From Planctomycetota bacterium (GTDB lineage Bacteria; Planctomycetota; Phycisphaerae; WQYP01), in NCBI GenBank assembly GCA_021852275.1, contig JAJZNX010000025.1:621-64620 (forward strand): a stretch of 64,000 nucleotides of DNA, given 5' to 3'. A model generated the notes under the pieces. The model saw only the letters and a list, made by a program, of their open reading frames with translations. It did no database searches and was not told the origin of the DNA. Positions 7,087 through 26,111 of this stretch are shown here, piece by piece. Each line of letters opens with the position of its first letter. The first letter of the stretch is position 1. The translations under genes were made by a program, and so were the position numbers.

Positions 7087-7203
7087 TGTCGGGAAGAGAC
7101 AGGGCGGTGACGCCGCGGAAAGGAAGGCGCAAACCCGGTGGGAGTGTGGCGCGAATTTTCCCGGCAATCCGGGAATAGTCCGGGCGAGAGTGAAGGAGTG
7201 ACA

Positions 7204-9888
7204 ATGAATAAAAATTTAACGTATCTGCTTTTGCTGACGGCCGGAGCGGCATGGTGCACGGGGAGGCCACCGGTTGCACAAGGCCGGGCAATGGGTATAG
7301 ACGTCTCGAATTTTCAGGGGAGTATCAACTGGACGCAGGTGGCCGCGGACAGCGTGGGCGGCAGTTCCATCAGCTTTGCGTGGGCGAAATGTGATGAAGG
7401 CAGCGCAAGTAACGTAGACTACATTGATCCGACTTTTCAAACTAATGTGGCTGGTGCTACAACAGCAGGCATTATGATCGGGGCGTATCATTTAGCACAT
7501 CCGGAGCTTGACACGCCGGCATCCGAGGCGGATTTCTTCGTGGCCAACGCCCGCGCGCAGATTGGTGCCGGCTACCTGCGGCCGGTGCTGGATCTGGAGG
7601 AGGGTGGTGGAGTGCCGGTGGTGGGGGCATCAAGTCTGTCCGGGTGGGTCAATGATTTTTTAAGCGATGTGCAGGCTCTCAGCGGGGTTACGCCGATTAT
7701 CTATACGGACAGCAATTACGCCCAGAGTTACCTTGATTCGAGCGTAGCGAAGAACAATCTCTGGATCGCCAATTATAATTATCCAACGCAATCACAGACG
7801 GCCAGCCCGCCGGTTGGCGTTTTCAATGTCTGGAATTTCTGGCAATACACGGACAGTCTTAGCCTATCTGGCATCAGCGGCAACGTGGACGGCGATGTGG
7901 CTAACGGCCCGGTAAGCTACGTACAGAGCTTTGTGACCCCGATTGACACGCTGCAGTGGAATTCGGGTGAAAGCGGCAGTGGTGGTACTGATGGCAACGG
8001 CACATGGGGCGGGACTGGCAAGCAGTGGTACGACACGACAACTGTGGCCGGTCCTGTGCTGTGGACCACCGGTGACGGGGCGGCGCTCGGCAGTGGAAGT
8101 TCGGGGCAATACACCATTACGCTGACCAATGATGTTATCTGCGGCCAGAATGAAACCGGTACGTCAAATGCGGGGCCGTTTGTCGGCCTGACGGTTGCCT
8201 CCGGCGCCAACTATAACCTGAACGGTTCTGGACAGCTTTACTCGCTGACTGACAATGGCCGATTTCAGGTTAACGGCCGGCTTACCTTGGGAAACATTAC
8301 CCTGGACAATAGTTCGTATGACCATAACGTTTATTCAAGCATATCGGGCGTCTACGGAGGCCAGTTGAACATCGGTGCAGGGGCAAATGTCAATGCGGCG
8401 GAGATTGATGCGGGCGGGGGCAGCGGCGCAACCGGGACGATTAACGTCAATAGCGGAGGCAGTTTACTGGTAGGTTCGCGATTGCAGATCAACTTCGGCA
8501 AGGGGCCGGCCAGCGGTACCGGCGGCGTAGTAAATGTTGAAGGTGGTACGATCAGCTTGGGAAGCAGTGGAATCATCTGGCTTAGCGATGTGAACACGGG
8601 CGGGGGCAGCAATGGATCTGTGGGTACCCTCAACGTGGGTACAGGTGGCACCGGCGGCATTGTTACCGCCCCGGAAATGGAAACGGCATATAACAACACT
8701 GCGCAGACCGGGGTGTTGAATATTTACAGCGGTGCCGTTACACTCACCGGGGGTATTGCTGTTACCGCCAATGGCTCGGCAGTTACGGATGTCAATGTTT
8801 ACGGCGGTACATTTAACGCCGCTTCCGGCACGATTACCTCGGCTGTCGGGGCAGGTACAAACCTGAACGTAACGGGTGGAATCGTTACAGCGGCGACAAT
8901 CGATGCCGCGGGAACCACCAGTATGACCATCAGCGGCAGCGGCATCGTGAAAGCCACGAGTACTGGTGTCGGCGGGTCAATTACCAGTGGCAGCGGCGGT
9001 ACAACGACGATCAATCTTGACGGCGGGGTGCTATTTGTTTACACCATCAGCGGTGCCGGTGACGGGAACACCACACTTAATTTTAACGGCGGAATGCTGC
9101 AGGAAAATGGCGGATCTTCATTCGATCAGAGTATGATCAGCAGCGCCGGTGGATCGAAGCCGAACGTTTATATCGATAGCGGAGGAGGAATCATTGATAA
9201 CAATTCTGCAACTGTAATTGACTATGCACCATTTCTGGCGGGAACAACTTCCGGCGGCGGCCTGACGATTGCCAACAGCGGCAGCGGCGGAGCGGTCGAA
9301 CTGGCAGGTGGAGCCAACACGTACACGGGAGCGACGGAAATTAAATCTGGTGCCACCCTGGCGCTGGCGTACCATAACGGCGTGTCGGCTACGATTGTAG
9401 ACAGCAGGTTGCTGCAGATAGACACGGGAGGTACGTTGGACCTTACGGAGGAGGCGACGGGACAGCAGATCAGCGTTGGCGGATTGAGACTGGCGGGAGG
9501 CACCCTGAGATTCCTGCTGGACGGCAGCCAACTGCAGAGCATTGCCGCGAGCAGTGCCGCAACGGTCAGCGGCACAAACTGGATTGATATTTTTACCAAA
9601 GGATCTTCTCTCACAGTCGGCACGTACAACTTAATCAGTGATGGGCAGGGTGGATTATCAGGTGGAGGAAGCTTGAATTTTGGTAATGGTCTGGATCAGG
9701 AAACGGTTGTTGTTGGTTCTAACGGATACCTATTAACCTTGATAAATTCCGCCACACTGGAGACTTTGACCGTCGGCACGCAAGGGACCATTCCTGAACC
9801 ACCGGCGTTGGGGCTGGTGGCCGAGGCCGTGCTGCTGCTAGGGTGGAGCAGACGCACATACCGCGGTTTTAAACGCCAATGCGTATAA
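7204..9888 (+). CDS. GH25 muramidase (lysozyme) domain fused to beta-strand-repeat region and PEP-CTERM anchor
   Basis: ATG at 7204 follows GAAGGAG, and a signal peptide is present (LTYLLLLTAGAAWC). The GH25 signature runs GIDVSNFQGSINW...GAYHLAHP...LRPVLDLEE...IIYTDSNY...LWIANYN...WNFWQYTD...GNVDGDVANG. About 650 aa are paralogous to 3480-5606. The C-terminus is IPEPPALGLVAEAVLLLGWSRR. Confidence 0.85.
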   Translation: MNKNLTYLLLLTAGAAWCTGRPPVAQGRAMGIDVSNFQGSINWTQVAADSVGGSSISFAWAKCDEGSASNVDYIDPTFQTNVAGATTAGIMIGAYHLAHPELDTPASEADFFVANARAQIGAGYLRPVLDLEEGGGVPVVGASSLSGWVNDFLSDVQALSGVTPIIYTDSNYAQSYLDSSVAKNNLWIANYNYPTQSQTASPPVGVFNVWNFWQYTDSLSLSGISGNVDGDVANGPVSYVQSFVTPIDTLQWNSGESGSGGTDGNGTWGGTGKQWYDTTTVAGPVLWTTGDGAALGSGSSGQYTITLTNDVICGQNETGTSNAGPFVGLTVASGANYNLNGSGQLYSLTDNGRFQVNGRLTLGNITLDNSSYDHNVYSSISGVYGGQLNIGAGANVNAAEIDAGGGSGATGTINVNSGGSLLVGSRLQINFGKGPASGTGGVVNVEGGTISLGSSGIIWLSDVNTGGGSNGSVGTLNVGTGGTGGIVTAPEMETAYNNTAQTGVLNIYSGAVTLTGGIAVTANGSAVTDVNVYGGTFNAASGTITSAVGAGTNLNVTGGIVTAATIDAAGTTSMTISGSGIVKATSTGVGGSITSGSGGTTTINLDGGVLFVYTISGAGDGNTTLNFNGGMLQENGGSSFDQSMISSAGGSKPNVYIDSGGGIIDNNSATVIDYAPFLAGTTSGGGLTIANSGSGGAVELAGGANTYTGATEIKSGATLALAYHNGVSATIVDSRLLQIDTGGTLDLTEEATGQQISVGGLRLAGGTLRFLLDGSQLQSIAASSAATVSGTNWIDIFTKGSSLTVGTYNLISDGQGGLSGGGSLNFGNGLDQETVVVGSNGYLLTLINSATLETLTVGTQGTIPEPPALGLVAEAVLLLGWSRRTYRGFKRQCV

Positions 9889-10084
9889 TCGGGGCAGCGT
9901 CTTGAGATCCAAGGGATGCCCGAACAATTTCGCAACGCTTAATGAATCATGGTATTTTCACGGTGCAAGGAAGAAACGACCGGTTGGCACCTGATGCGAG
10001 ACGACGTTTGGTCAGGAAGTCGGTGGCGAGTAACATGGTTGCGTTTAGCAGTGGGGGGGTACCATGGGATACAGTGGAGTTCAT

Positions 10085-10414
10085 ATGCAGCGCAATGAGG
10101 CGGACGGGATTATTATTTCCTGCGACTTTTGTGGGACGGATTGGGATGGCCAGGCCGCAATGGTCGAGGGGCATCATGGTTCGGTCATCTGTCTGGATTG
10201 CGTAAAAAAAGCGTTGGAAGGGGCCGCAGTGGGCGAGGATAAATACGAATGTACGTTGTGCCTGCGTCATAATATACCAGGGTCGCTGCCGCGGTGGACT
10301 AATCAGCCTAAGTTCAGTGCGGTGGTTTGCCAGGAATGCTTACATCAAGCGGCCAAGGCATTAAGCAAGGCACCCCATGCTCAATGGAAATGGCAGGGTG
10401 GAGCCAAAAAATAA
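10085..10414 (+). CDS. small protein with two ClpX-type C4 zinc-finger-like modules
   Basis: ATG at 10085 with GGAG 5 nt upstream. CDFCGTDWDGQAAMVEGHHGSVICLDCV resembles the ClpX N-terminal zinc-binding pattern CxxC...CxxC. A second module reads CTLC...VVCQEC. Confidence 0.5.
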   Translation: MQRNEADGIIISCDFCGTDWDGQAAMVEGHHGSVICLDCVKKALEGAAVGEDKYECTLCLRHNIPGSLPRWTNQPKFSAVVCQECLHQAAKALSKAPHAQWKWQGGAKK

Positions 10415-10476
10415 AATTGACATAGCCATGCTGCAGCGATAATCTACTAAAGTTATCTTTCAACAAGGAGATTAAA

Positions 10477-11430
10477 ATGAGTCGGCTTTTTCCAGACATT
10501 ACCTCTACGATGGGCAATACACCCCTGGTACGAATCAATCGTTTGATTCCAGCCGGACAGGCGACAGTATACGCCAAATGCGAATTTTTTAATCCGTTAG
10601 GCAGCGTGAAAGACCGCATTGGCGTGGCAATGATTGCGGCAGCGGAAAAGGCGGGGCAAATTAACAAAGAAACGCACATCTTGGAGGCTACCAGCGGCAA
10701 CACTGGAATAGCCTTGGCATTTGTGTGTGCGGCAAAAGGCTACAAACTTACGCTGTTCATGCCGGAAAGCATGTCGCTGGAGCGGCGTAAGCTGCTGCGA
10801 ATTTTAGGTGCGAACCTGGTATTGACACCAGCTACGGAAGGTATGCCGGGGGCGATCCGTCGTTGTTCTGAAGCGGCGGAACATGACAAGAACTCTCTGA
10901 TTGCGAGGCAGTTTGAAAATCCTGCCAATGTAGAGATTCACCAGAAAACCACTGCAGAAGAAATCTGGCGTGATACTGACGGCAAGGTGGATGTTTTAAT
11001 ATCAGCAGTAGGTACTGGAGGAACAATTTCAGGGGTGGCTTCGGTGATTAAGAAGCGAAATCCAAGATTTCGGGCGATTGCCGTGGAACCAACGAATTCG
11101 CCGGTGATAACGCAGACGAAAGCGGGCCAACCTATCAAGCCTGGCCCGCATAAGATTCAGGGTGCCGGTGCAGGATTTATTCCCAAGAACTTACATATGG
11201 ATATTGTGGATGAAGTGATACAATGCACGAATGAAGATGCATTTACCTGGGCGCGGCGTTTAGCGGCGGAAGAGGGAATTTTGGCGGGCATCAGTTCCGG
11301 AGCCAATATGTGGGCAGCGGCCCAGGTGGCAGCCAGGCCGGAAATGAAGGGCAAAGTGATTGTGACAATTATGTGTTCTACCGGAGAGCGGTATTTGAGC
11401 ACAGCCATGTTTGAAGGCTTGGATGTATAA
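10477..11430 (+). CDS. cysK: cysteine synthase A (O-acetylserine sulfhydrylase)
   Basis: 317 aa. [11 protein letters not shown], the PLP-lysine region [22 protein letters not shown] and GTGGTISG are canonical CysK motifs. Confidence 0.95.
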
Positions 11431-12033
11431 GGTTACCGTTGGAGGGTGGGTTAATTTTTGCGATAGGCGGGCAATTATACTCAATTTAACATAACGTATA
11501 TACTGATTCACATGTGTTAGGTAGTCTGAGTAACGAATGATTGGTATCTGTGGATGAATAATAGTACGTATTACTTTGATATGACCAGGTGGAGTCAGAG
11601 TAACAGAATGATGAGGCTGTTTTAGTACCTTTAGAATCCGAATTGCATAAGTCGGTAATCTGCGTCTGAAAGATATAACGCTAAGAGCACCATCAGATCC
11701 CCATGGCGATAAGGGACAATTAATCTGGTTAGGTTTTAACATAGTTGATGAGATGATAACTCCGTGGCGCAACCAGAAAATTCGGACTGGGAATTTACAG
11801 TATGTCATTGAAAACTTACGCCGGCCGAGTTTCCAATTAAAGAGAGAAGAGTATTGGTGAACGCTTGATATGTAACAGAGCTTTGCGGTTTTTAATACAA
11901 AAATCTTGGCTGGAAAATGGATGAACTTGATTGTTTGTGAGTTTTGCAGTCGAGCACGTATAATGACGACACGTGCTAAACAACTGGTTGAAGCCAGAGC
12001 TATGACTGAGAAAATTAAGAGGTACTTTTTCAT
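11260..12033 (-). CDS. hypothetical signal-peptide protein whose ORF runs across attL into host DNA
   Basis: A 257-codon ORF in AT-rich DNA, where the other frames are stop-dense. Begins [18 protein letters not shown]. Residues YIRYVKL are encoded by the att core. The last roughly 80 codons lie outside the prophage and antisense to the cysK 3' end. Confidence 0.35.
11481..11501. repeat. attL: left copy of the 21-bp direct repeat TCAATTTAACATAACGTATAT (hybrid dif-like site 11484-11511)
   Basis: Identical to 21660-21680. It contains ATTTAACATAA (reverse complement of the E. coli XerD arm TTATGTTAAAT) plus the 6-bp centre CGTATA. The distal arm TACTGATTCAC is non-canonical. Confidence 0.8.
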
Positions 12034-12481
12034 ATAAAGCCCTTTAATGAGAAAATTCTTATCAGGAATATGAGATCCTGTCAAGCAATGGCTGATAAAA
12101 AATCGAAAAAATGACGTTCAATCAAATATTTAACAGTACGTTAGGTATTTGTTTGTATCAGCCGACCTGATTACACCTCAGTAAAAGAGAAATGAGAAAG
12201 ATCCGCTCCACGGCCGCTTGGCCGCTTGCAACTCTCTTCCCTCCAGGCTGGCCGACTGCCGTCGGCATTAGTTTCGCAGGTTAAATATGTAATGATGCTT
12301 CGTGTAGATCAGGTGATGCCATTGCTGGCCTGCATGCATAATTCGTATCAGGTTACGGATGGACGAACGGTCCTGTTGGTTCTTTACGTGCTGAATCTGG
12401 CATTGAAATGACCAAAGAAAACAGTAAAAAAGCAGAAAGGCTATGCTGATGATTCTTGGCCAAGACTTCCACATATGTTAC

Positions 12482-12871
12482 CTAGTAAATAATGTGCTTT
12501 TGTTTTAATATCTCAGGTGGTATTTCGTCATTCTTACCGGCGATGGCACGCCAGAAGTTCTTAACGTGCTTAGTCTCTTGGTAAACGAAATGACGATCAG
12601 ATTCTGGACCTGTTTCAGGACATAATTCTCGGAACCAGATGATATCTAAGAGCTCGCAATATTTTCGCCTGGTAGCGTCAGAATGGATTATGTCCAAGAC
12701 TTGATACCCGAAGAGTTGGCCGAGAAATAAAGCTCCAATTGCTGATTCTAATTGTCGGGCATCTGTTTCGCTTCGGTGACTATCACGTAATGCGTCTTCC
12801 ACGGTTTGGAGAATTTTATGAAGGCGCTTTGCTTGTTCTCGGGTATGTGCAAATGGTTTAGTTTTTTTCAT
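12482..12871 (-). CDS. hypothetical protein (prophage accessory gene)
   Basis: 129 aa. The start overlaps the stop of the upstream ORF (ATGA at 12868-12871). No motif recognised. Confidence 0.6.
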   Translation of the reverse strand: MKKTKPFAHTREQAKRLHKILQTVEDALRDSHRSETDARQLESAIGALFLGQLFGYQVLDIIHSDATRRKYCELLDIIWFRELCPETGPESDRHFVYQETKHVKNFWRAIAGKNDEIPPEILKQKHIIY

Positions 12872-13131
12872 GATTTCTCCTCTAAAAAGTGTCCATTCAT
12901 CCGCTTAATCATCAGCAGGACAGCCGCAAACGCCTCCTGTTGGCCTTGCAACCTCCGATACGACGGGTCGTCCTCTCTGATGTGAATTGACTCAAGCTGG
13001 GCCATCCTGGCTTGCGCCTGAGCCTCCTTGCCCACCAGCCAGTTAATGAGTGGTTGACTGTCCATGACGGGATCCTTTCTGTAATGTTTTTGTTCGGCCT
13101 TCCGCTTCAGCGAAAAGCTTCTTGGACTCAT
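12868..13131 (-). CDS. hypothetical small protein (prophage accessory gene); the start is more likely the ATG at 13065
   Basis: 87-aa tracked ORF. An internal ATG at 13065 gives a 65-aa product, MDSQPLINWLVGKEAQAQARMAQLES..., predicted helical. Translationally coupled to 12482-12871. Confidence 0.45.
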   Translation of the reverse strand: MSPRSFSLKRKAEQKHYRKDPVMDSQPLINWLVGKEAQAQARMAQLESIHIREDDPSYRRLQGQQEAFAAVLLMIKRMNGHFLEEKS

Positions 13132-14329
13132 TCAGAACTGGCTTTAAAATGACTGAATGTCTCAAGCCACCCGGTAACAAGTGAGGTTGTTGGTAATGTT
13201 CTTTGCAGGCAACACTTTCCAAAGAGATCCACAAAGAAAATTCGTCGCCGGCATCGTCATCGGCTAAGGTTGGATTGTTTGAAGATATTCCAAATTCCTT
13301 GCCCAAGCTTCGGTCAGTAGCACGGACTAACTGTACGGTGTCTCCAACATATCCTTGTGCCAGAAAATTGATTGTCTGTTGTACTTCTGGTGCTAACGGG
13401 TTTGAATCACCACCAATAAAACTCGAGATTGTAAGGTTTCCAGCAATAACCCAGTGGTTGCCGACTCTTGCTGCATTGAGGTCAACTGTAAGCCCGGATG
13501 TGCGCGTAGAGTAGCCTGATGTCAGCAGGTTATTGGTATTGCTGGTTGCAGCAGTTGTAGTGTATTCAGGAGCGACAATTGTTGTGGTATCAGTGTACTT
13601 TTCCTCTTGCCGGCTAAGCATAGTTGCTCCAAATGTAGTGAGAACAGCTTGAGCTTGGTGCAGCACATTACCCAAGACATTAACTCCAACACCAGATACT
13701 GTGGTCATTGAGGTTAGCGGAGTTGAGATCCCGTTGACAGATATATCAACATTGTTTGCCCGGCTTTCGTTGAGGAGCCAGACTTTGACACGTACTTGAG
13801 GAACACGACGAAGTAAGAATCGAAGTAGCTTTTCTGCCTTCGAGTACAGGCTGATGGGACCAGTAACAACCAATCTGTCGCCAATAGCCGAGAAGTTGAC
13901 TCGTGGAATTGCAAGTTGTTCCGGAACAATGCCCGTTAAGCCAGGATTGATCGGGTTAGGGACAACGACAGTAAACTGCCGGCGATGAGACCAATGCAAG
14001 CGAATAACATTACCTCGGAGATGAGGAACCGTATCTGTTTCACGAGCTAAGACTCTTGACAATCTTCGGGCTGTATATCGTCCGGCAAGCCAAACAGGAT
14101 CATCCTGCAATCGTGGATTAAAAAGTAAATGCAGGTTTTCGGTTGCCAATGCGGAACGCAGTACCCGTAATGTCATAATGCCTGAGAGGCGAAAGCCATG
14201 ACCATATACGTGAAACTTACGGACTTCACGTATCGTAAAGTGCTGGTGGACTGGCGTGGATGGCAAATCACCCATAGCACAGCCGGTGAGTGATATCACT
14301 ATTAAAAACAAAATCGTTAACCGCTTCAT
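13043..14329 (-). CDS. secretin-family outer-membrane channel, lipoprotein (phage pIV-like)
   Basis: 428 aa. Lipobox LTGC at residues 14-17. The C-terminal half (TVDLNAARVGNHWVIAGNLTISSFIGG...PEVQQTINFLAQGYVGDTVQLV) follows the secretin C-domain pattern. The size matches f1 pIV (about 426 aa). ATGA overlap with the Zot-like gene. Confidence 0.75.
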   Translation of the reverse strand: MKRLTILFLIVISLTGCAMGDLPSTPVHQHFTIREVRKFHVYGHGFRLSGIMTLRVLRSALATENLHLLFNPRLQDDPVWLAGRYTARRLSRVLARETDTVPHLRGNVIRLHWSHRRQFTVVVPNPINPGLTGIVPEQLAIPRVNFSAIGDRLVVTGPISLYSKAEKLLRFLLRRVPQVRVKVWLLNESRANNVDISVNGISTPLTSMTTVSGVGVNVLGNVLHQAQAVLTTFGATMLSRQEEKYTDTTTIVAPEYTTTAATSNTNNLLTSGYSTRTSGLTVDLNAARVGNHWVIAGNLTISSFIGGDSNPLAPEVQQTINFLAQGYVGDTVQLVRATDRSLGKEFGISSNNPTLADDDAGDEFSLWISLESVACKEHYQQPHLLPGGLRHSVILKPVLNESKKLFAEAEGRTKTLQKGSRHGQSTTH

Positions 14330-15552
14330 CTAATAGCTTTCTCATGGATAGTCATAGCACCCGCCTGATGACGTAATGTATCTGGAGCTTTTGGCTTTGG
14401 AGGCCACCACCAATATCGTTGAGTGACTTTGCCGGCTGGTCCCATGATTTGAATACCACCATAATTGACATCGAGTATTTTCCATCCATCAAATTTAAGT
14501 CCGATGGGAAGTAGGCCAACGTGAGATCCGTTACCCAGTATGACAGAATCGCCGATGATCCCATATAGACGGAGCTTTGATGACTTTTTGTAGACTTTTC
14601 TGACGATAATCTGTTTATGATTCTTTTTGGCAGGTAAATGCTGGTGATCGTATATGGCATCGGCCACCAAGAAAAGTGCCAAGACGGCCAAAACGTATCT
14701 TTTCCACTTTCGACGAGGCTTTTCTGCATGGTGGTTGGCGTTAACTTGCACAATTGTTTGTTGCGGCTGAACTTGTCCTGCATAAGCCGGATTAGCAGGA
14801 GGTATCGGTATGTGATAAGTCTGGGAAGACTGTCCAGGTTCAGGTTGATCACTTAGCACAATTGGCATGACTTTATTTCCTGTTGGTCGACTAACAACTG
14901 ATCCAGGTCGATTAGCCTTATTGGCAGCAACTTTGGCGCGAGTGTCGTACAGTTTGTAATAAGGGAGCATTTCCGCCGCTGTAACAACACGCGGAAGACC
15001 GATAGCCTGTTGTCGCTGACCATTCTCCACATTGTAAGTACGCTGGAAAAAAAAAATCGGACGGCCGCCGACTCTTGGTACAAATTCTGGGAATCCAACT
15101 CGTCTACAAGCTGTAAATCGTGTAGCCCGTTGGCGAATGAAAATATCCAGGTTGGCAAAATTCTGGCACAAGAGCCAGAGGCTATCGCCGTCTTTCCTGA
15201 ATTGTGATATGTAGGCTTGGAATGTGTTGCGATGGCCTGAGGAATCTTTCTCCGCACTGTTGATCTTCCAATCGCGAGCGGACCAGATCAGGTGAGCTTC
15301 GTCTACGTAGACGTCATATCCAGGAGGTATCAACTCCCAGAAGTGTCTGGTTTCTCCGGCATCATCGTCCAATAGAACAACTTCAGCACCCGACCAGATT
15401 CTTTTGGCTTGCTGCACAAAAGCAGGCAGGATTGCAATATTGGTTGCAATTTTATGGTGTCGGTAAACAGAATCGAGCATCAATTGTACGGCGAGCAGGC
15501 TTTTGCCACGACCTGGTGCACCGTCAATTATTGTCAGTGTACCATCCATCAA
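14326..15552 (-). CDS. Zot / pI-like P-loop morphogenesis ATPase
   Basis: Walker A IIDGAPGRGKS, Walker B-like VYVDEAHLIW, and an internal TM segment (RYVLAVLALFLVADAIY) as in inovirus pI/Zot. The likely true start is the ATG at 15549 (TGATG overlap with the upstream ORF). Confidence 0.85.
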   Translation of the reverse strand: MMDGTLTIIDGAPGRGKSLLAVQLMLDSVYRHHKIATNIAILPAFVQQAKRIWSGAEVVLLDDDAGETRHFWELIPPGYDVYVDEAHLIWSARDWKINSAEKDSSGHRNTFQAYISQFRKDGDSLWLLCQNFANLDIFIRQRATRFTACRRVGFPEFVPRVGGRPIFFFQRTYNVENGQRQQAIGLPRVVTAAEMLPYYKLYDTRAKVAANKANRPGSVVSRPTGNKVMPIVLSDQPEPGQSSQTYHIPIPPANPAYAGQVQPQQTIVQVNANHHAEKPRRKWKRYVLAVLALFLVADAIYDHQHLPAKKNHKQIIVRKVYKKSSKLRLYGIIGDSVILGNGSHVGLLPIGLKFDGWKILDVNYGGIQIMGPAGKVTQRYWWWPPKPKAPDTLRHQAGAMTIHEKAIR

Positions 15553-15950
15553 CTATTACCCCAGAACTGATGATAAGCGATCAGGGCAATTCGGATTAAC
15601 AGACAAACAGGTAGCAGGAGAAGGAGAAAGGCCAAACCGTCAACAAATACGGCCATATCAATAAATGGGTTAATTACGTCAGATAAAATGCTATAAATGT
15701 TCTCTATTACTGGTGCTGCATTGGTTATTGCAGTGGTGATATAGCTGACGACATATGTTAACCCCATGGCAGATATGCTAGCTTGAAAGAAGCTTGAAAT
15801 TTCAGGCAGGTAACCTTCAAGGCATGAGTACATGTAGGTCCAGATAACTTGAGCAGCAGCTTCTAAGCCCTGTATGACAAACTTTGTCGCAAAGTGTGCG
15901 AAATCAACCAGTGGCTGCATTACGTATGAGATAGTACCAGAAAGACTCAT
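15549..15950 (-). CDS. hydrophobic minor-coat-like membrane protein (pVI-like by size and position)
   Basis: 133 aa with several hydrophobic segments. Located between the adsorption-protein gene and the Zot-like gene, as gene VI is in Ff phages. Confidence 0.55.
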   Translation of the reverse strand: MSLSGTISYVMQPLVDFAHFATKFVIQGLEAAAQVIWTYMYSCLEGYLPEISSFFQASISAMGLTYVVSYITTAITNAAPVIENIYSILSDVINPFIDMAVFVDGLAFLLLLLPVCLLIRIALIAYHQFWGNS

Positions 15951-15952
15951 TT

Positions 15953-18157
15953 TTAGTCCTCGTTAGATGGTGCTCCGAGTTTGAAAGGTAATTCACCACC
16001 CCATAGTGACCAGTGAAAAATCTTAACGGTTGCGACCAGAATCCATAAAATATAAAAGCCGGTGCAAATTGGTTGTAACCACTCGCAGCCTGTAGAGAAG
16101 GTTATTAGACCGGCAACGAATGCGTTACCAATTGTTGAAACTTCACCATCCGGATCTGATGATGAAGTCGAAGTGAAACCAGGTCCTGTCCAGGAAACAC
16201 CGTTTGAAGGTTGCTGGATGCCGCCGTAAAGCGGCATATTCGAGAGGTTGGTTTGACCATCTGTATTGGATGCAGACGCAACTGCACCGATGCCCGTTGA
16301 TTCTGTAGATGCGTTAGCAGAGTTAAGAATGGTGTTTGTTACAAACTGCAATGGTTGTGTGAGTCTTGTAGCCTTTAATACGTCATAAGCACCTGTGCCT
16401 GAAGTGCTGTTAAATGTGTAAGAACCGGATGAAGATGTAGCAGAAGGCATGTCTTGGGTTAGTTGTGTGACCATATAGCCAGCATCAGAAGATGCTGATA
16501 ATGCAGAGCTTTGGGTGTTTTGCTGAATTGTAGTTTGGGAAAGTTGACCACTGGTCAGTCCAGAGAACGTGGCCAGGTAAGGTTTGATGTTTCCGTTTGC
16601 ATCTGGGGCGTTATAGAACGCCTCGGCGAACATGTTTGTATAGACACCTTGAGGTGTGTCAGGTCCCTGATACCACTCGGCTGGAGTTTCTCCAGGTGCC
16701 TGTTGGAAGGAGGAAGTAGTAATGAAGTTATATGGTGCAGTTAAGTAACCTGATTGCGTTTCAGTGATACCATATGCGTATGAGAGTAGTTGTGGTAATG
16801 ACGCACTAACTTGACTCCCGAATGGCATGCTATTCAAACTTCCATTACCGTATTGGTTGTAAAATTGCCAGTCTAGTGCACCAAATGATGTGTAATAAGG
16901 TTGTGGTATAGATCCACCTAAACTCGAATTATAAAATTGACCTATATCGTAATTTGGTTGCCAGGTGAGAGCAGCGGCGATGTCGTCTAAATAGCTGTTT
17001 CCCTCCGGATCAAGAAAAACACTGTGGCCGATGTCGGGGTTGCCTTGTGGCCCGGTTAGGTTTGGATTGTCGGTTAGGAATACGCTGCTGCCCAGTGGGA
17101 CGGTTTCGGTGCCGGTGATTGCTTGTGCTTGGGTTTGGAATGCTGAATCCCAAATACCCTGTTGGGGGTAGGTCTGGTTGTGGTTTGGCATGTACCATGC
17201 TTCCCAGTTGTTTCGTCCCGAGAAGACAGATACGCTTTCTTCTGGTCCGTATTCGTCTTTGAATACGGAGCTTAGGCCTGCTTTTGGGCTGTTGGATGTG
17301 ATGCCTGTGTCGTAGTTGAGTTGTGCAAAGTAGGACAGTCCGCCGTTTATTCCGAGGTTGGTGTTCGCGGTGGGTTGGACGAAGGCGCTTGCTCCGTATT
17401 TGTCTGTGAAGACGGGCCAAGAGTTGTTGTATTCGGTGGCTTCTTGCCATGCCGTCGGGGGCTGAAGTGCGTTTGCTAGGTTTTGCGCCGCGGCGTCCGG
17501 GTTGTAGGCGAAGTCGGATTGTTCGGTCAAGGCGTTGTAAAACAGGCTGTTGCCGTTGCCGTCCTTGAATACGCTGGTGGCGGTGCCTTTCTGGTTTCCG
17601 GAGGAGTTTGTGTAGGTTGGGGTGAAAGAGAAGTCGCTGCCGCCGGTGTTGGGGTCTATGAAGACGCTTTGGTAGGTTGATGGTTCGTTTAGGGTGCCGG
17701 TGGCGTAGTAGGGCATTCCGTTGCCCATCATCCACCATGGGTTTTGGCTGTATTGTTGCTGGAATACGCTCCATTGGTTGTTTTGGTCGTAGAAAGCGTG
17801 GTAATTGATTGATGCGGTGCTGGCGAGTACGCCAGTTTGGTTGGCGGTGTTGCCGCGTATGGCGGGTAGTTCGCCGACGGTGCTTGTGCCGACGGTTGCG
17901 TCGTTTGCTATGCCGATTTGGGCGGCGCTTTGGTTGATGGCGTTTACCACGGTGCTGAAGGCTGGGTATGAGCCTGATCCGTTGTTGTTGGTGTAGGCCG
18001 CGCTTGCCGTTGCGCAAGGGGCGGCGGCTGTGGCTAGGATTATGGCTGCGGCCGCCGTGTGGTGCCAGTTGGTGCGGGTGGTCCGCTGGGGCCAGGCGGT
18101 CGCTAGGAGGCTGTGTAGTCGGTGCGCGTCTTGTCGTCGTGTTTTTTTGGCGTTCAT
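15953..18157 (-). CDS. large N/S/T/Q/Y/G-rich secreted protein with a C-terminal membrane anchor (pIII-like adsorption / receptor-binding protein)
   Basis: The ATG at 18157 gives MNAKK...AAAAIILATAAAPCATASA, a signal peptide. The C-terminal hydrophobic anchor is GFYILWILVATVKIF. The largest gene of the element sits immediately upstream of the pVI-like and pI-like genes. Confidence 0.65.
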   Translation of the reverse strand: MNAKKTRRQDAHRLHSLLATAWPQRTTRTNWHHTAAAAIILATAAAPCATASAAYTNNNGSGSYPAFSTVVNAINQSAAQIGIANDATVGTSTVGELPAIRGNTANQTGVLASTASINYHAFYDQNNQWSVFQQQYSQNPWWMMGNGMPYYATGTLNEPSTYQSVFIDPNTGGSDFSFTPTYTNSSGNQKGTATSVFKDGNGNSLFYNALTEQSDFAYNPDAAAQNLANALQPPTAWQEATEYNNSWPVFTDKYGASAFVQPTANTNLGINGGLSYFAQLNYDTGITSNSPKAGLSSVFKDEYGPEESVSVFSGRNNWEAWYMPNHNQTYPQQGIWDSAFQTQAQAITGTETVPLGSSVFLTDNPNLTGPQGNPDIGHSVFLDPEGNSYLDDIAAALTWQPNYDIGQFYNSSLGGSIPQPYYTSFGALDWQFYNQYGNGSLNSMPFGSQVSASLPQLLSYAYGITETQSGYLTAPYNFITTSSFQQAPGETPAEWYQGPDTPQGVYTNMFAEAFYNAPDANGNIKPYLATFSGLTSGQLSQTTIQQNTQSSALSASSDAGYMVTQLTQDMPSATSSSGSYTFNSTSGTGAYDVLKATRLTQPLQFVTNTILNSANASTESTGIGAVASASNTDGQTNLSNMPLYGGIQQPSNGVSWTGPGFTSTSSSDPDGEVSTIGNAFVAGLITFSTGCEWLQPICTGFYILWILVATVKIFHWSLWGGELPFKLGAPSNED

Positions 18158-18363
18158 TTTGCAAGTTCCTTGTAGTGGTTGACTATTTCCGGGGTTCGGG
18201 CGCATTTGCCGCAGAGTCCACGGCCGCGGCTGAAGTCTACCCAGAGCCAGGATGTACCGTCTGGGCCTCTCCTGCGGCCAGTAAGATGGCATCCCACGCA
18301 TCGGCACTTTGTCCAAGACTGTCTGGACATGATCATTAGACGACGATCAATTTTCATTTTCAT
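18154..18363 (-). CDS. small Cys-rich zinc-ribbon-like protein
   Basis: ATG at 18363 with GGAAAGGA just upstream. 69 aa containing CRCVGC...CGKC. Its stop overlaps the pIII-like start (ATGA at 18154-18157). Confidence 0.45.
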   Translation of the reverse strand: MKMKIDRRLMIMSRQSWTKCRCVGCHLTGRRRGPDGTSWLWVDFSRGRGLCGKCARTPEIVNHYKELAK

Positions 18364-18484
18364 TGTCCTTTCCGCTTTTTGGTGAAAACATGGGTTTAAG
18401 CAGTGGCAGATAGACAAAAGCATAGAAGGCAAACATGCCACAAAAAAATGACAACACTGGCATTACATAATCTCCAAACGATGC

Positions 18485-18501
18485 CCGGGCCGGGGCCGAT
18501 A
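18485..18501. repeat. left arm of a 17-bp perfect inverted repeat bracketing the major-coat gene
   Basis: CCGGGCCGGGGCCGATA is the exact reverse complement of 18819-18835. Confidence 0.9.
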
Positions 18502-18525
18502 TTAGAGTGTGAAGTAACCTTCGGA

Positions 18526-18804
18526 TTACTTCATGGCGTGTTTGGCCCTCCGGAAGATAAAGAACACTGTCCAGATCGCGGCCCCGATACCGATGATCGG
18601 GAGCAAGGCCGGGTAAATGTAGGTGGTCAGTGACCCAACAATGTTATCAGGCGAGACCGATGAGGAAAGTGTAGGACCGTAGTCTACCTGTGCCCATGTA
18701 ATGCCATGGAAAAACAACGTGCCAACCAGGGCAACTGCTGCGAACAGAAAAGTCCGTGTTCGTCGGAAGAGGCTTGAAGCCATCGAAATTAGAGAAGAAA
18801 ACAT
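18526..18804 (-). CDS. major coat protein candidate (pVIII-like)
   Basis: 92 aa. Signal peptide ending ITWA/QVDY, then an acidic/polar N-terminus. One TM helix (ALLPIIGIGAAIWTVFFIF) and a basic C-terminus (RRAKHAMK). This is the classic inovirus coat architecture. Confidence 0.7.
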   Translation of the reverse strand: MFSSLISMASSLFRRTRTFLFAAVALVGTLFFHGITWAQVDYGPTLSSSVSPDNIVGSLTTYIYPALLPIIGIGAAIWTVFFIFRRAKHAMK

Positions 18805-18818
18805 AAAAGAATCCTTTC

Positions 18819-18835
18819 TATCGGCCCCGGCCCGG
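18819..18835. repeat. right arm of the 17-bp perfect inverted repeat bracketing the major-coat gene
   Basis: TATCGGCCCCGGCCCGG lies 15 nt upstream of the coat ATG. Its partner is at 18485-18501. Confidence 0.9.
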
Positions 18836-18842
18836 AGACCGA

Positions 18843-19025
18843 TTAAGTATCACTTTCATTGTCAGAACCATACCGATCGTCAATGATAAAATGTTGGTCT
18901 TTGTTTGAATTATCAGCAGCTTCGTTATTGTCAGAAAACAGAACGTGTACAATCTCGATGATCCAAGTAATCACTGCAATGCAGATACTTAGCCACCACA
19001 TGCTGATGTTGTAAATGATTCTCAT
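18843..19025 (-). CDS. small single-TM protein (minor coat-like)
   Basis: 60 aa, MRIIYNISMWWLSICIAVITWIIEIV..., with an acidic tail. The ATG overlaps the stop of the upstream ORF (ATGA at 19022-19025). It is hidden in the track inside a longer 136-aa ORF. Confidence 0.4.
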   Translation of the reverse strand: MRIIYNISMWWLSICIAVITWIIEIVHVLFSDNNEAADNSNKDQHFIIDDRYGSDNESDT

Positions 19026-19216
19026 TTTAAGACTTCCCAACATCTTCGGATGATCCAAGGTCCAAAAAATAGGCCGGCTGCACAACCACAGAGAACAAGA
19101 GCACCAGGTGCCAACCAACTCCAAACTGATTCGCCAATTTGTATTGCCGTGACTACAGGCTCCGGTCCGTATGAAGAAGCGGCTGCAATCTGTGCCAAAA
19201 TCATGTTTACTTCCAA
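19022..19216 (-). CDS. small single-TM protein (coat-like: hydrophobic core, basic C-terminus)
   Basis: 64 aa. The TM segment is APGALVLCGCAAGLFFGPWII, followed by RRCWEVLK. Confidence 0.45.
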   Translation of the reverse strand: MEVNMILAQIAAASSYGPEPVVTAIQIGESVWSWLAPGALVLCGCAAGLFFGPWIIRRCWEVLK

Positions 19217-19500
19217 TCCAATAAATCAACAGCTTGGCGCCAGATCCAGCCAAAACTCATGCTTGTTGACCAGATCAATAAACCGGCTCCCATACCATCC
19301 ATGAATCCGTTAAGGCTAAGATTGGGCTCGTTAGGTTGTGTCCAAATAGGATAGCCAGAATCAGGGTTAGGAGGCGTCATCTGGTAAACCGTGACATCGC
19401 CTGCGGAACTTTGTCCAGGTTGTAATTGACCCAAAACAAGGCTTTGTGTTGCCCAAATAGCCCAGGCAGCGAAAAAAAGATAAATGATGGCCAGTTTCAT
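19207..19500 (-). CDS. small secreted/membrane protein
   Basis: An internal ATG at 19500 gives MKLAIIYLFFAAWAIWA, a signal peptide. 97 aa with a C-terminal hydrophobic segment. Confidence 0.45.
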   Translation of the reverse strand: MKLAIIYLFFAAWAIWATQSLVLGQLQPGQSSAGDVTVYQMTPPNPDSGYPIWTQPNEPNLSLNGFMDGMGAGLLIWSTSMSFGWIWRQAVDLLDWK

Positions 19501-19517
19501 AGAAAATATTCCCCGGG

Positions 19518-19925
19518 TCAGGCTGGAGACTCCCTGTAGGCCAAGGTCCATTCAATAACACGCTCAAGCCATATCGGTATGTTTGGTGGGGGGTTTGGCG
19601 GTTTTGTGTTATTAATCAAGTAAAGCTTTTTAACTCCCGAATTATCGCCGGCGGCGGCTTCGCTAATCGCCGCCGGCATCTGTTCGGGATACCCAGAAAG
19701 TGATACTGAATTAACAACACCAAAAACCGACCGGAAACACCCGAGAAAATATTGCCAGGTTGTAGCGTCTATGGTGACCGCAATCCATCCTTTAGAACCA
19801 GCAGGTACTAAATCTAGTCCTAGATGTCGAAGCGTATCAAGCAGCTGATTGAAATTGATTTTTAGATTGCCAAACCATCGTCCGTAGACCCTGTACGTGC
19901 TTCTATTGCTGGCCTTGTCTATCAT
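19518..19925 (-). CDS. C-terminal portion of the replication initiator (separate ORF only because of a frameshift at the G10 tract)
   Basis: This reading frame is open upstream of its ATG as far as 20030. It joins the Rep frame if the G run at 19974-19983 is one nt shorter. Confidence 0.5.
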   Translation of the reverse strand: MIDKASNRSTYRVYGRWFGNLKINFNQLLDTLRHLGLDLVPAGSKGWIAVTIDATTWQYFLGCFRSVFGVVNSVSLSGYPEQMPAAISEAAAGDNSGVKKLYLINNTKPPNPPPNIPIWLERVIEWTLAYRESPA

Positions 19926-20523
19926 TTGACCAATGCTGGTATAAACAGGGATAGGGATCGGCCCATTTGGCCGCCCCCCCCCCTGACCGAACTGGTGACC
20001 TCCAGAAACCAGGTGAGGCGTGAATGATCTTCACCGACCCTGCCCTGTATGTGTATAAAAATGGTGGTACACCATCAGTTTTTGAAAAGTATTTACAGAA
20101 ATAGCGGAGTTCAAATTCACCGGCCCGCCTGATCCAGACAAAGCCCCAGCCCCAGCATTTATCGAGCAGGTCATGTTCGATTCTGTCCAGGCCGATTATT
20201 AAAATGTGCCAATGAAGCCAGCCTCCAGATTGAAACTCTGTTTTAGCAATCCATAGTCCGGTTAGCGAAGTGCCGAGGCGCTCACTTAATCTGGTAATGA
20301 ACCGTCTTAGGTGACGTTCAGCAGAGGCTTTGTAGTAAAGGTCATCTGGGGATTGGAACTCTTCACGTCGATAGGTCAGTTCGATTTTAAGAACACGTTC
20401 ACCCTTACAACGAGTAATAAGTTTCTCGGCTAATTGCCAGGCTTTCACCGGCCCGTAAGTAGCGTCAAGCCAGGAACGTGCCTGACCAGGTTTAATCTCT
20501 ACGTCTGTTGCGTTGTTATCCAT
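19903..20523 (-). CDS. rolling-circle replication initiator, HUH endonuclease (phage gene II-like), N-terminal portion
   Basis: HUH motif GGWLHWHILIIG, and a downstream Tyr motif, ELRYFCKYFSK. The ORF ends 21 codons after the G10 tract. Confidence 0.7.
   Translation of the reverse strand: MDNNATDVEIKPGQARSWLDATYGPVKAWQLAEKLITRCKGERVLKIELTYRREEFQSPDDLYYKASAERHLRRFITRLSERLGTSLTGLWIAKTEFQSGGWLHWHILIIGLDRIEHDLLDKCWGWGFVWIRRAGEFELRYFCKYFSKTDGVPPFLYTYRAGSVKIIHASPGFWRSPVRSGGGAAKWADPYPCLYQHWSNDRQGQQ
19974..19983. repeat. homopolymer C10 (G10 on the coding strand) inside rep
   Basis: Counted directly: ccg + 10 c + tga. Confidence 0.95.
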
Positions 20524-20582
20524 TTAATCGTCTCCAAGTTATTTCAAAGTCTGGAGCTCTCTCTCCGCTCCCCAGGCTAGTC

Positions 20583-20846
20583 TTACTTGGAGACAATTCT
20601 TTTTGCGTTCGTGAGCATGAACTTCCAAGAATTATTAAACTGCTCGAAATTGCCTGTGCACTCATACTGTGCACCGACCTGACAGGAATCTGCCAGCTTC
20701 TGGTCCCTGGTAGCCAACTCGAATGTCCCGCCCATGCATGAGAATTTGACCAGGTGCTGGAAGACCCGGCCATCTTTGGTTTTCAGGTCACGGACTTCTG
20801 AACAGACACCAACCAACTGAAACGAGGGAATCGGAGCAAAATCCAT
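20583..20846 (-). CDS. small protein, candidate ssDNA-binding protein (gene V-like by size and position)
   Basis: 87 aa, the same length as f1 gVp. Good RBS (GAAAGGA), immediately upstream of rep. No sequence motif was verified. Confidence 0.4.
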   Translation of the reverse strand: MDFAPIPSFQLVGVCSEVRDLKTKDGRVFQHLVKFSCMGGTFELATRDQKLADSCQVGAQYECTGNFEQFNNSWKFMLTNAKRIVSK

Positions 20847-20858
20847 AAATGGATCCTT

Positions 20859-21578
20859 TCATAAAACGCATAACTGATGCGCGTCAGGACAAACCAAACT
20901 GGCTGGTCGAGCCATGCCGTGAAGGAGGAACACGGCATGGTTGCGACGAGTCAGGTAGGACAACTGACCGGTCACAGGCGTAGGAGCTTTATTTTGGAAG
21001 TAGCGGCAAATACCAGACTGTAACAGGCTGTATTGGGTGGCAGTTTTCTGGAATGAGTTGACTTGGTGCCTTAATTTTCGAGAGTTTGTTCTTGTGTTCT
21101 TCGAATAAGAAGAGCCAGACAAGTTCATCGGCTGGAGCAGCAGCGAGGATTGATGCTGTAATAGAAGAGCAATTACTTGGCAGATAAGGGCACCCGTTGT
21201 TGGTGATTGCCAGTACGTGTCCATTGATAACGTCAATTGGTTGAAATTTTGGATCCATAAAATACTCCTGATAAAAAGAGATTGGCCGGTTAAGAAAGAT
21301 CGGAGATTGCGTGGACTGGTTAATGGGTTAAGCCACCTTAAAGGAAAGATTTCAGGTCCCGGGTAACCCGGAATGAATCTCATATCTTTAAGTGAACGAA
21401 ACCAGTCTGAATGTATCCAACGAATTGCGGCATTGTGCCGGCGGACATCATAGTTATGCAGTCTGATGATTGTAATAACGTTAAGCCAGATGACCCAGAT
21501 GAAAAAAGTAATCAGGAAAGGCCATCGTACTGACTTGTAGACACGATCAATTATGTTTTCAAAACGCTTAAAGTCCAT
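20859..21578 (-). CDS. hypothetical membrane protein (first gene of the prophage; true 3' end uncertain)
   Basis: ATG at 21578 with AGGTG upstream. The N-terminal roughly 100 aa contain a clear TM segment (WPFLITFFIWVIWLNVITII). The distal part is S/L/Q-rich, overlaps the 89-aa ORF and includes the hairpin. Confidence 0.35.
   Translation of the reverse strand: MDFKRFENIIDRVYKSVRWPFLITFFIWVIWLNVITIIRLHNYDVRRHNAAIRWIHSDWFRSLKDMRFIPGYPGPEIFPLRWLNPLTSPRNLRSFLTGQSLFIRSILWIQNFNQLTLSMDTYWQSPTTGALICQVIALLLQHQSSLLLQPMNLSGSSYSKNTRTNSRKLRHQVNSFQKTATQYSLLQSGICRYFQNKAPTPVTGQLSYLTRRNHAVFLLHGMARPASLVCPDAHQLCVL
20912..20940. repeat. perfect 10-bp stem / 9-nt loop hairpin CCATGCCGTG-AAGGAGGAA-CACGGCATGG
   Basis: Read directly. 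It lies 66 nt upstream of the SSB-like gene start, in the segment between the 89-aa ORF and that gene. Confidence 0.9.
20989..21258 (-). CDS. hypothetical protein
   Basis: 89 aa. The ATG at 21258 is preceded by AGGAG with a 6-nt spacer. It overlaps the 239-aa ORF in a different frame. Confidence 0.4.
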   Translation of the reverse strand: MDPKFQPIDVINGHVLAITNNGCPYLPSNCSSITASILAAAPADELVWLFLFEEHKNKLSKIKAPSQLIPENCHPIQPVTVWYLPLLPK

Positions 21579-21659
21579 GCTGGCACCTGTTAGGTAATAG
21601 TTTGCAGTCTGTTTGGGCAGTCCTGTAATAACAGTTTATTCTGTAAATTTTAGAGGTGG

Positions 21660-21690
21660 TCAATTTAACATAACGTATATTATAGGACGT
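21660..21690. repeat. attR: right copy of the 21-bp repeat plus the complete 28-bp dif-like site (21663-21690)
   Basis: ATTTAACATAA-CGTATA-TTATAGGACGT. The reverse complement ACGTCCTATAA-TATACG-TTATGTTAAAT aligns with E. coli dif GGTGCGCATAA-TGTATA-TTATGTTAAAT. The XerD arm matches 11/11, and the ATAA end of the XerC arm is conserved. Confidence 0.75.
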
Positions 21691-21776: not shown

Positions 21777-21850
21777 GCGCTCGTAGCTCAGTTGGATAGA
21801 GCGGCGGTTTCCTAAACCGCAGGTCGCAGGTTCGATCCCTGTCGGGCGCA
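21777..21850 (+). tRNA. tRNA-Arg (anticodon CCT)
   Basis: 74 nt, folded by hand as a cloverleaf. Acceptor GCGCTCG/CGGGCGC, anticodon loop TTCCTAA, T-loop TTCGATC. Confidence 0.9.
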
Positions 21851-21864
21851 TCAGACCGGCCAGT

Positions 21865-22290
21865 TCATCCGATCATGGCGGTAGCTTCAATTTCAATCAT
21901 TGCCGCCTCATCAATGAGGTTGCTCACTTCCACCGTGACTGTGGCAGGCCGGATTTCTCCGAACATTTCTCCATGCACTGTGGCCACCTTCTCCCAATCC
22001 TTGATATGCCGCAGGTACATGCGAGTACTGACGACATCCGCTACTGAAGCTCCCAGCACCTCGAGGGCACTTTGAATAATGGCCAGCGATCTGCGGGTTT
22101 GCTGGGCTACATCCGGGGAGTATGTTTTATCTGGGTTGATGCCCACGCATCCACTGACAAATATCAGATTTCCCTTTTTCACTGCCCGACTGTAGCCGAT
22201 TTTTGGCTCCCACGCACTGCCGGAACTAACGGTTAATTTTCCAGCACGTTCTACCAGGGTAAATGGTGATTTTTGATGGTTATGAGCCAT
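21865..22290 (-). CDS. ridA: RidA/YjgF/TdcF family reactive-intermediate deaminase
   Basis: 141 aa. The pattern YSRAVKKGNLIFVSG ... ADVVSTRMYL ... RPATVTVEVSNL...IEIEATA is typical of the family. Confidence 0.8.
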   Translation of the reverse strand: MAHNHQKSPFTLVERAGKLTVSSGSAWEPKIGYSRAVKKGNLIFVSGCVGINPDKTYSPDVAQQTRRSLAIIQSALEVLGASVADVVSTRMYLRHIKDWEKVATVHGEMFGEIRPATVTVEVSNLIDEAAMIEIEATAMIG

Positions 22291-25774: not shown

Positions 25775-25939
25775 TGTTTTCTCCGATGACCCGCCCATTT
25801 GCAGTTTTTTACCGCCAGCCACATCATTCGTCAATGGCCCGGCCAGCGTGGACCTGCCGATTTCCATCCCAAGGCCCTGCCGCTTGCCAAATTGGCCAAC
25901 GGCCTTAGAATGATTGAAATTCCCTCTCCCAAGGGCAAT

Positions 25940-26012
25940 GAGGCCGTAGCTCAGCTGGTAGAGCAACAGACTTTTAATCTGTGGGTCCTGGGTTCGATCC
26001 CCAGCGGCCTCA
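25940..26012 (+). tRNA. tRNA-Lys (anticodon TTT)
   Basis: 73 nt. Acceptor GAGGCCG/CGGCCTC, anticodon loop CTTTTAA, T-loop TTCGATC. Confidence 0.9.
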
Positions 26013-26111
26013 TTAACCCCCCGGGGCTGTCCAGGCCGGTTTGGCGGGCAAGATAGCTGGAATCGGCGGGGGTTTCCCGTGTGACAGCGCGTTGAGTAAA
26101 ATACCTTTGTT

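Follow-up and report, generated by a model that had tools for sequence, protein, structure and literature searches.

The 64,000-nucleotide stretch analysed here, which we call the window, comes from a Planctomycetota bacterium (contig JAJZNX010000025.1) and carries at positions 11502–21680 an element of 10,179 bp, counting one copy of a repeated core, with every gene on the minus strand. We conclude that this element is very probably an integrative filamentous phage of the kind called integrative mobile elements exploiting Xer (IMEX), lysogenic in a Phycisphaerae bacterium and located at dif, the host's chromosome-dimer-resolution site. The assignment draws on the lack of an integrase or other recombinase gene in the element, its insertion in a chromosomal dif, a phage attachment site (attP) that is dif-like, and a complete dif regenerated at one of the two junctions. 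The genes of the element mark it as an inovirus-like prophage. Its host, an uncultured member of the Phycisphaerae (Planctomycetota), is known from metagenome assemblies only; among the proteins that cluster at 90% identity with one window protein is NNM87810.1, which NCBI lists as 'Phycisphaerae bacterium'.

Attachment sites and the case for dif

The 21-mer TCAATTTAACATAACGTATAT is present on the plus strand as two exact copies, at 11481–11501 and 21660–21680, as the original prediction had reported (21/21 identical). There is no third copy in the window even at two mismatches or fewer, and shuffled sequences are expected to contain none. Of the 21 bases of this core, one belongs to the XerC-side arm, six form the centre and eleven the XerD arm; the remaining three (TGA) are flank. 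At the right end of the prophage it forms part of attR (21663–21690, minus strand), a complete 28-bp dif that reads ACGTCCTATAA (XerC arm)–TATACG (centre)–TTATGTTAAAT (XerD arm); its XerC arm is that of the host, while its centre and XerD arm do not differ between host and phage. The left junction, attL (11484–11511, minus strand), is a hybrid, GTGAATCAGTA–TATACG–TTATGTTAAAT, where the phage arm GTGAATCAGTA matches the XerC arm at 3/11 positions and the XerD arm is followed by host flank. No other site in the window comes closer to the 28-mer than 10 mismatches, leaving a single complete one.

The attR site has the 11–6–11 layout of chromosomal dif sites, together with the XerD-arm consensus and the inner ATAA/TTAT palindrome. 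The dif sites of E. coli (GGTGCGCATAATGTATATTATGTTAAAT) and B. subtilis (ACTTCCTAGAATATATATTATGTAAACT) given by Kono et al. 2011 (PMC3025954) agree with those given in the original prediction. The XerD arm of attR matches that of E. coli at 11/11 positions and its XerC arm, by manual count, that of B. subtilis at 9/11, so that the earlier description of a perfect XerD arm with preserved 6-bp spacing, a B. subtilis-like XerC arm, a complete dif at attR and a hybrid at attL can be retained in full.

Reconstruction of the phage half-sites gives a double-stranded attP of GTGAATCAGTA–TATACG–TTATGTTAAAT(TGA), in which the centre and XerD arm of the host dif are copied and the XerC arm is absent; the junction predicted for the circular phage is GTGAATCAGTATATACGTTATGTTAAATTGACCACCTC. 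We found no inverted dif-like partner near attP, and the single-stranded DNA of the attP region folds without a CTXphi-type hairpin. An 11-mer resembling the XerC arm with two mismatches, at 11542–11569, was set aside, such matches occurring at chance level in the window. Just inside attL there is an imperfect direct repeat, AGTCTGAGTAAC (11523–11534) and AGTCAGAGTAAC (11593–11604), spaced 70 bp.

The site without its phage is seen in close relatives, whose contigs were reached via the members of the cysK 90% cluster. In L191 (GCA_021851715.1) and L192 (our own handles for contigs and loci are used throughout), cysK is followed by ACGTCCTATAATATACGTTATGTTAAAT and then tRNA-Arg, with no phage between them. 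The phage-free single site that had been predicted, ATTTAACATAACGTATATTATAGGACGT, is present exactly in both, and window attR reads the same as these empty sites. L193 (GCA_021790385.1), L195 and L196 are empty as well, with a one-base centre variant, TGTACG. L194 has the cysK allele of L193 and 2,120 bp of host flank identical to that of L193, yet contains the prophage, indicating that occupied and empty versions coexist in one population. The bacterial attachment site, attB, is the 28-mer, and window attR is identical to it. The L194 and window copies of the phage are ~96.6% identical and their host flanks ~94% identical; we considered recent horizontal transfer of the phage and rejected it, because phage and host flanks diverge to a similar degree.

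To place the 28-mer among known sites, we scanned 185,579 GTDB species genomes (596 Gb) for the pattern TCCTATAA-N6-TTATGTTAAAT. This returned at least 120 matches, each single per locus, where ~4 would be expected by chance (an estimate from the 19 specified bases). Among the matches listed, most loci belong to Bacteroidota and follow a tight consensus, and two metagenome-assembled genomes (MAGs) of Phycisphaerae, L057 and L119, have both arms identical to those of window attR. The L057 site is 27/28 identical overall, with the centre TATATG, and the L119 centre is TGCATG. In JGI metagenomes, CGTCCTATAA-N6-TTATGTTAAAT matched 48 contigs with 28 different centres. Constant arms around a varying centre are the pattern expected of a recombinase target.

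The Bacteroidota/Firmicutes dif class of Kono et al. 2011 has in common with the window site the 11–6–11 layout, a TTATGTTAAAT or near-identical XerD arm and a (T/G)TCCTA(T/G)AA XerC arm. The Planctomycetota sites differ from it in the outer bases of the XerC arm, ACG, and in centres that read TATACG, TGTACG, TATATG or TACATG. The Bacteroidota dif is itself very uniform, (T/A)T(G/T)TCCTATAA TT(T/A)ATA TTATGTTAAAT (L006–L125). The two bases after the XerD arm are conserved too, with A in 87/119 and G in 85/119 sites among the matches listed, and the Planctomycetota sites studied have TG directly after the host XerD arm, at the same position as the Bacteroidota AG. Recognition may extend beyond the canonical 28 bp.

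The same loci were used to ask about terminus polarity, defined as a GC skew that, read on either strand, falls from higher to lower across the terminus. Among the matches listed, 55 loci had at least 1.5 kb on each side, and skew was higher on the left than on the right in 48 of them (binomial p=6.5e-9), with a mean left–right difference of 0.099. In the window, the skew of plus-strand genes falls from +0.12 on the left of the site to +0.03 on its right, where minus-strand genes have −0.06. The polarity is the same in L193 (0.149 versus 0.007) and L191 (0.032 versus 0.002), which are homologous loci and not independent of the window. The 28-mer belongs to a widely conserved dif class with terminus-type skew polarity, and these data are consistent with a site near the chromosome terminus. 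It should be noted that dif lies near the termination point and not necessarily at it, and that the sole Planctomycetes genome in the survey of Kono et al., included for its XerCD orthologs, was one in which dif prediction failed (PMC3025954).

Several results weigh against the reading of a Xer-integrated phage at a terminal dif. The cumulative GC skew of the window plateaus from ~25 to 55 kb with no sharp peak at the site, and the effect of side on skew is small (0.023) after correction for gene orientation. The window holds no Xer or integrase genes, its ten open reading frames (ORFs) of ~300 aa all being metabolic enzymes, and no xerC, xerD or ftsK was found in the window or in the Planctomycetota loci examined by regular expressions for Xer C-terminal motifs. 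Nor was a free circular attP junction recovered. The exact 21-mer core has 0 matches in JGI metagenomes, which thus yielded neither a free attP nor a same-species site. A search of IMG/VR with the 17-mer TATACGTTATGTTAAAT was discarded when it matched only unrelated contigs of ~30% GC. FtsK has been reported as conserved across the PVC superphylum (PMC12283558); a remark in the same paper that Planctopirus FtsK lacks a 'gamma domain' was not used, because its Pfam accessions look mislabelled.

Related phages and the mode of exchange

Homologs of the prophage Zot protein at 34–40% identity are confined to a few metagenomic or MAG proteins, one of them named 'Planctomycetia bacterium'. The contigs that encode them contain integrase-less inovirus prophages, and dif-like sites flank these wherever both ends are visible. 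A second host clade has its dif in the interval from asd to an epimerase gene. The site is empty in L151, whose two flanks are contiguous at 77–80% nucleotide identity, and likewise in L119, L188, L159 and L174. Prophages occupy the dif of this clade in L134, L137, L140/L142, L205 and L207. One end of these prophages has the host XerC arm, the centre and a degenerate XerD arm; the other has the phage XerC arm, the centre and the host XerD arm, which together make a complete dif. As reconstructed from these junctions, the attP of the second-clade phages resembles that of TLCphi: XerC arm and centre are good, and the XerD arm is degenerate.

The cysK/tRNA-Arg dif of the window's own host clade is occupied by two further phages, and from the junctions we count at least three different inoviruses that use it. 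The phage of L198/L199 encodes a 344-aa Zot, lies in the opposite orientation and has a TLC-like layout with the junction ACGTCCTATAA TGTACG GTATGTGTTAC; its junctions, at 5198–5225 of L198 (ENA ERZ27233564) and 5151–5178 of L199 (ERZ27233562), are in an L193-type host. L194 comes from the same sample and has a window-type phage on the cysK side. Either two lysogen strains are present in this sample, or the two prophages form a tandem array and enclose its only intact dif. The phage of L209 encodes a 299-aa Zot and has the layout of the window phage, with junctions ACGTCCTATAA TATACG TTATGTATAAT and GTAGCGAAGAA TATACG TTATGTTAAAT. The attP of the window and L209 phages thus consists of XerD arm and centre and lacks a XerC arm, which mirrors the design of their XerC-armed relatives. 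In all of these prophages, it is the Rep-proximal end that regains the complete dif.

On the minus strand of the window, the octamer ACCTAACA occurs at 11515–11522, 3 nt outside the non-XerC arm of attP, and at 21588–21595, 67 nt past the XerD arm and shortly before the first phage gene. Both copies are in direct orientation, and there are no others in the 64-kb window. The L209 phage has the motif at 14135–14142 (3 nt outside the non-XerC arm) and at 2630–2637 (66 nt beyond the XerD arm), in a region where the two phages are otherwise barely alignable. The first copy falls in different reading frames in the two phages, which indicates conservation at the DNA level. The junction regions of the XerC-armed phages lack the motif, and a scan of IMG/VR for ACCTAACA-N20-TTATGTNNAAT returned AT-rich chance matches only, with no second motif. 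The copies, seen in two phages only, could be accessory binding sites; alternatively, the second could belong to the region in which translation of the first gene initiates. In the XerC-armed phages of L134 (~3940–3950), L137, L205 and L207 we observed an inverted XerC-arm-like 9-mer (TTATAGGAC, TTATCGGAC, TTATAGGGC or TTATCGGGC) between the complete dif and the first phage gene, ~85–95 nt upstream of the phage XerC arm and, in three of these four phages, followed by GTGAA. Its role may be that of an additional XerC binding site or of a regulatory site.

Like the window phage, CTXphi and VGJphi are integrase-less filamentous phages integrated at dif by the host XerCD recombinases. However, the label of a CTXphi/VGJphi-type phage proposed in the original prediction does not fit the attachment site. 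The attP of CTXphi is a folded single strand of two inverted sites, a structure that is absent from the window phage, and the attP of VGJphi has both arms, whereas the XerC-side arm of the window phage is only 3/11. Both phages rely on XerC catalysis. A closer parallel is TLCphi of Vibrio cholerae, which likewise has no integrase and a double-stranded half-site attP with one good arm, a dif-identical centre and one degenerate arm, and which regenerates a functional dif at one junction (PMC4246890). The window phage is the mirror of TLCphi in that its XerD arm is perfect and its XerC arm is missing; the TLC layout itself, with good XerC arm and centre and degenerate XerD arm, is found exactly in L134, L137, L140/L142, L198, L205 and L207. 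The two also differ in that TLCphi is a satellite with the XafT/DUF3653 protein, whereas the window phage has no detected homolog of that protein, appears from its genes to be a complete inovirus and resides in another host phylum.

A half-site design of the window type has already been described. A 2025 border-curation study of Vibrio prophages distinguished full-length, 'left-armed' and 'right-armed' dif-like attP, the 'left-armed' form being a XerD arm plus centre of 17 bp, for example ATTTAACATAATATAAA in PM2 (PMC12715192). The 'left-armed' elements share with the window phage an attP of XerD arm plus centre, the absence of an integrase and a dif regenerated at one junction, and on these grounds the window phage fits the 'left-armed' type (PMC12715192). 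They differ in being corticovirus-like (PM2-like, tailless and mainly of the double jelly-roll type) or Vibrio phages of Gammaproteobacteria, including Pseudoalteromonas, and in carrying an rstR/xafT-like lysogeny module; none was detected in the window inovirus, which has two copies of ACCTAACA.

The model we favour is that host Xer recombinases pair attP with the chromosomal dif ACGTCCTATAA–TATACG–TTATGTTAAAT between cysK and tRNA-Arg and that strands are exchanged in, or at the edges of, the 6-bp centre. The recombination between attP and dif fell within the shared 21 bp, leaving a perfect dif at attR and a crippled attL. XerC would occupy the non-cognate arm of attP through cooperativity with XerD, as XerD does on the degenerate arm of TLCphi (PMC9226527, PMC4246890). 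The complete dif regenerated at attR could still serve chromosome-dimer resolution, and the missing XerC arm of attL should lower the efficiency of excision by Xer at each division, which would stabilise the lysogen. The attP design, together with one natural marker, tentatively suggests that productive exchange takes place on the XerD side, the reverse of CTXphi and VGJphi and like the first step of TLCphi, whose exchange probably starts there. Such an exchange would need activation of XerD, by FtsK or by a phage factor.

The L194 lysogen bears on the order of exchange. Its attL combines the phage centre TATACG with the host XerD arm; in L193, the isogenic empty site, the centre is TGTACG. 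Had XerC alone exchanged strands before replication, the host centre would be expected at this junction, whereas an exchange on the XerD side gives the phage centre that is seen. An exchange initiated by XerD is plausible on this evidence, with chances that we put at about even. Two considerations temper it. The argument is tentative in that it concerns one polymorphic base in one strain pair and assumes a TGTACG recipient, and the same junction would also be given by a two-step exchange with heteroduplex segregation or by a secondary dif in a tandem array. A broader proposal is that the window and L209 phages represent an IMEX class that mirrors TLCphi, with no XerC arm, XerD making the first or only exchange, a factor that binds ACCTAACA, and coexisting XerC-armed inoviruses. 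In its entirety we regard this as speculative and on balance doubtful. Such a class would share dif with the XerC-armed inoviruses, possibly in tandem arrays with the only intact dif between prophages.

Among the alternatives to this model, the one that survives best is that the element is an IMEX that follows the CTXphi/VGJphi route, in which XerC alone exchanges one strand pair at the XerC side and replication resolves the product. No other mode has been documented as often for filamentous IMEXs (PMC4246890), and the window junctions do not discriminate, attP and dif having the same centre in that host. We nevertheless consider it unlikely, since a XerC arm cannot be recognised in attP (3/11), since neither an inverted second site nor a hairpin lies in its vicinity, and since the phage-type centre beside the host XerD arm in L194 would be unexpected if the recipient carried TGTACG. 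It is also quite improbable that the host has a single Xer-type recombinase, of the XerH/difH or XerS/difSL kind, which the phage exploits. Such systems are reported to use asymmetric sites too (PMC5357621). However, the window site has a right arm identical to the XerD arm of Proteobacteria and a left arm similar to the XerC arm of Firmicutes/Bacteroidota, each arm is conserved independently of the other, related phages mimic one or the other, and the Planctomycetes genome of Kono et al. had XerCD orthologs.

A third alternative is that a phage protein, either the HUH Rep or an unannotated ORF, acts as an unconventional recombinase that inserts the element and merely targets the dif sequence. 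HUH enzymes are able to cut and join DNA, most prophage ORFs are without a family assignment, and conserved ACCTAACA motifs flank attP. This explanation is very improbable, because the joint lies exactly in an 11–6–11 Xer site with a perfect dif regenerated, phages with unrelated Rep genes behave alike, and the common core is always the Xer centre plus one arm. Finally, the idea that the repeat serves a tRNA-linked tyrosine integrase as its att site and resembles dif by coincidence is effectively refuted: a tRNA-Arg(CCT) gene does lie 96 bp to the right, but the repeat is upstream of it without overlap, the element has no integrase, the 28-mer class is found elsewhere away from tRNAs (for example, between asd and an epimerase gene), and the motif class shows terminus skew polarity.

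Prophage genes and host flanks

The prophage has a GC content of 46.8%, compared with 52–58% in the host flanks. When its 14 ORFs were scanned against Pfam and PHROGs, only Rep and Zot gave significant matches and no integrase or other recombinase family was found among them, which bears out the earlier claim that the element has no integrase. The small ORFs gave no match to XafT/DUF3653 or any other Pfam domain at E<=0.1, a search that a non-homologous analogue would escape. From its genes alone, the element shows the features of an inovirus (Tubulavirales): a Zot/pI ATPase, a rolling-circle Rep, a 10.2-kb one-strand genome and a small coat protein with a signal peptide. No relatives of its Zot were found in GenBank phages by tblastn or in IMG/VR by a peptide scan, which points to a remote lineage. 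Scans of the prophage for promoters and terminators gave counts at chance level.

The prophage genes described next are all on the minus strand. The rolling-circle replication initiator Rep (19903–20523, 206 aa) contains HWHILI and matches Pfam PF23343, REP_ORF2-G2P (E=4e-12). In a ~99.9% identical copy of the prophage (L004, ENA ERZ27237444) it is fused, at 3413–4417, to the downstream 135-aa ORF to give 334 aa; this is a frameshift-type variant at the overlap of the two ORFs. The Zot/pI-type assembly ATPase (14326–15552, 408 aa) matches Pfam PF05707 (E=7e-9), PHROG 197 and PHROG 1675. The 787-aa product of 15953–18316 is a large pIII-like adsorption protein by its position in the gene order and by 27–35% tblastn matches in related prophages, with no Pfam or PHROGs family match, and its length differs among samples (734, 782 or 787 aa). 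Metagenome assemblies repeatedly break within this gene, which is extreme in composition, with a GC skew of ~0.22 and a 384-aa shadow ORF in another frame.

A major-coat-like protein of 92 aa (18526–18804) was recognised by direct reading of its sequence, which shows a signal peptide and a single hydrophobic helix and is basic at the C-terminus; it has a 41% match in the L209 phage and no family match. The small membrane protein of 133 aa at 15549–15950 is pVI-like by position only, in a gene order that is kept in relatives. Downstream of Zot, where a secretin or export gene would sit, is a lipoprotein-like protein of 428 aa (13043–14329) with 25–41% tblastn matches in all related prophages and no family match. 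The first prophage ORF (20859–21578, 239 aa), which adjoins attR, is also without a family match. At the other end, the terminal ORF (11389–12033, ~215 aa from MKKYLL...) crosses attL into host DNA, as far as 11260, and has weak homologs (28–31% identity) in the terminal genes of the L198 and L209 phages. Because it runs through the att site, its C-terminus differs between the prophage and circular forms. Its start is lipoprotein-like, and the terminal gene of the L209 phage has its stop codon within the host-derived XerD arm.

On the host side, the left neighbour of dif is a cysK-like gene of the PALP family (10477–11430, plus strand). As had been noted for the host genes to the left, all genes before attL (46–11430) are on the plus strand. 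The tRNA-Arg(CCT) gene (21777–21850, plus strand) adjoins the site without overlapping it, the end of the repeat lying 96 bp from the tRNA 5' end on its upstream side, and is followed by a RidA-like gene (Ribonuc_L-PSP; 21865–22290, minus strand). An Rfam scan of the window found three tRNAs and nothing else. Host proteins in the window include a DUF1559/N-methyl protein and a PEP-CTERM protein. L191 contains, at 14821–20954 of GCA_021851715.1 (homologous to the window from ~26014 onward), an integrative conjugative element that is absent from the window, with a 462-aa tyrosine integrase abutting the tRNA-Lys position (window 25939–26013), followed by HTH and S24-peptidase genes and by the conjugation genes DUF2274 and TrbI.

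Implications for Planctomycetota

The one comprehensive survey of dif sites failed for Planctomycetota (PMC3025954), and dif had previously not been pinned down in the phylum. The sites described here fix its sequence as A(C/G/T)GTCC(T/G)ATAA-N6-TTATGTTAAAT, with a genomic position known in two clades, and could be put to practical use in marking the terminus region and in finding small prophages without an integrase in MAGs. Our text searches of the literature found no report of Xer-exploiting filamentous phages in Planctomycetota, and the window phage and its relatives would extend such phages to this phylum, which to our knowledge divides without FtsZ. If the mirror class proves true, its dif would be the first anchored dif and terminus marker for Planctomycetota. 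Related phages that mimic either the XerC or the XerD half of one dif would also provide a natural test system for Xer activation outside dimer resolution.

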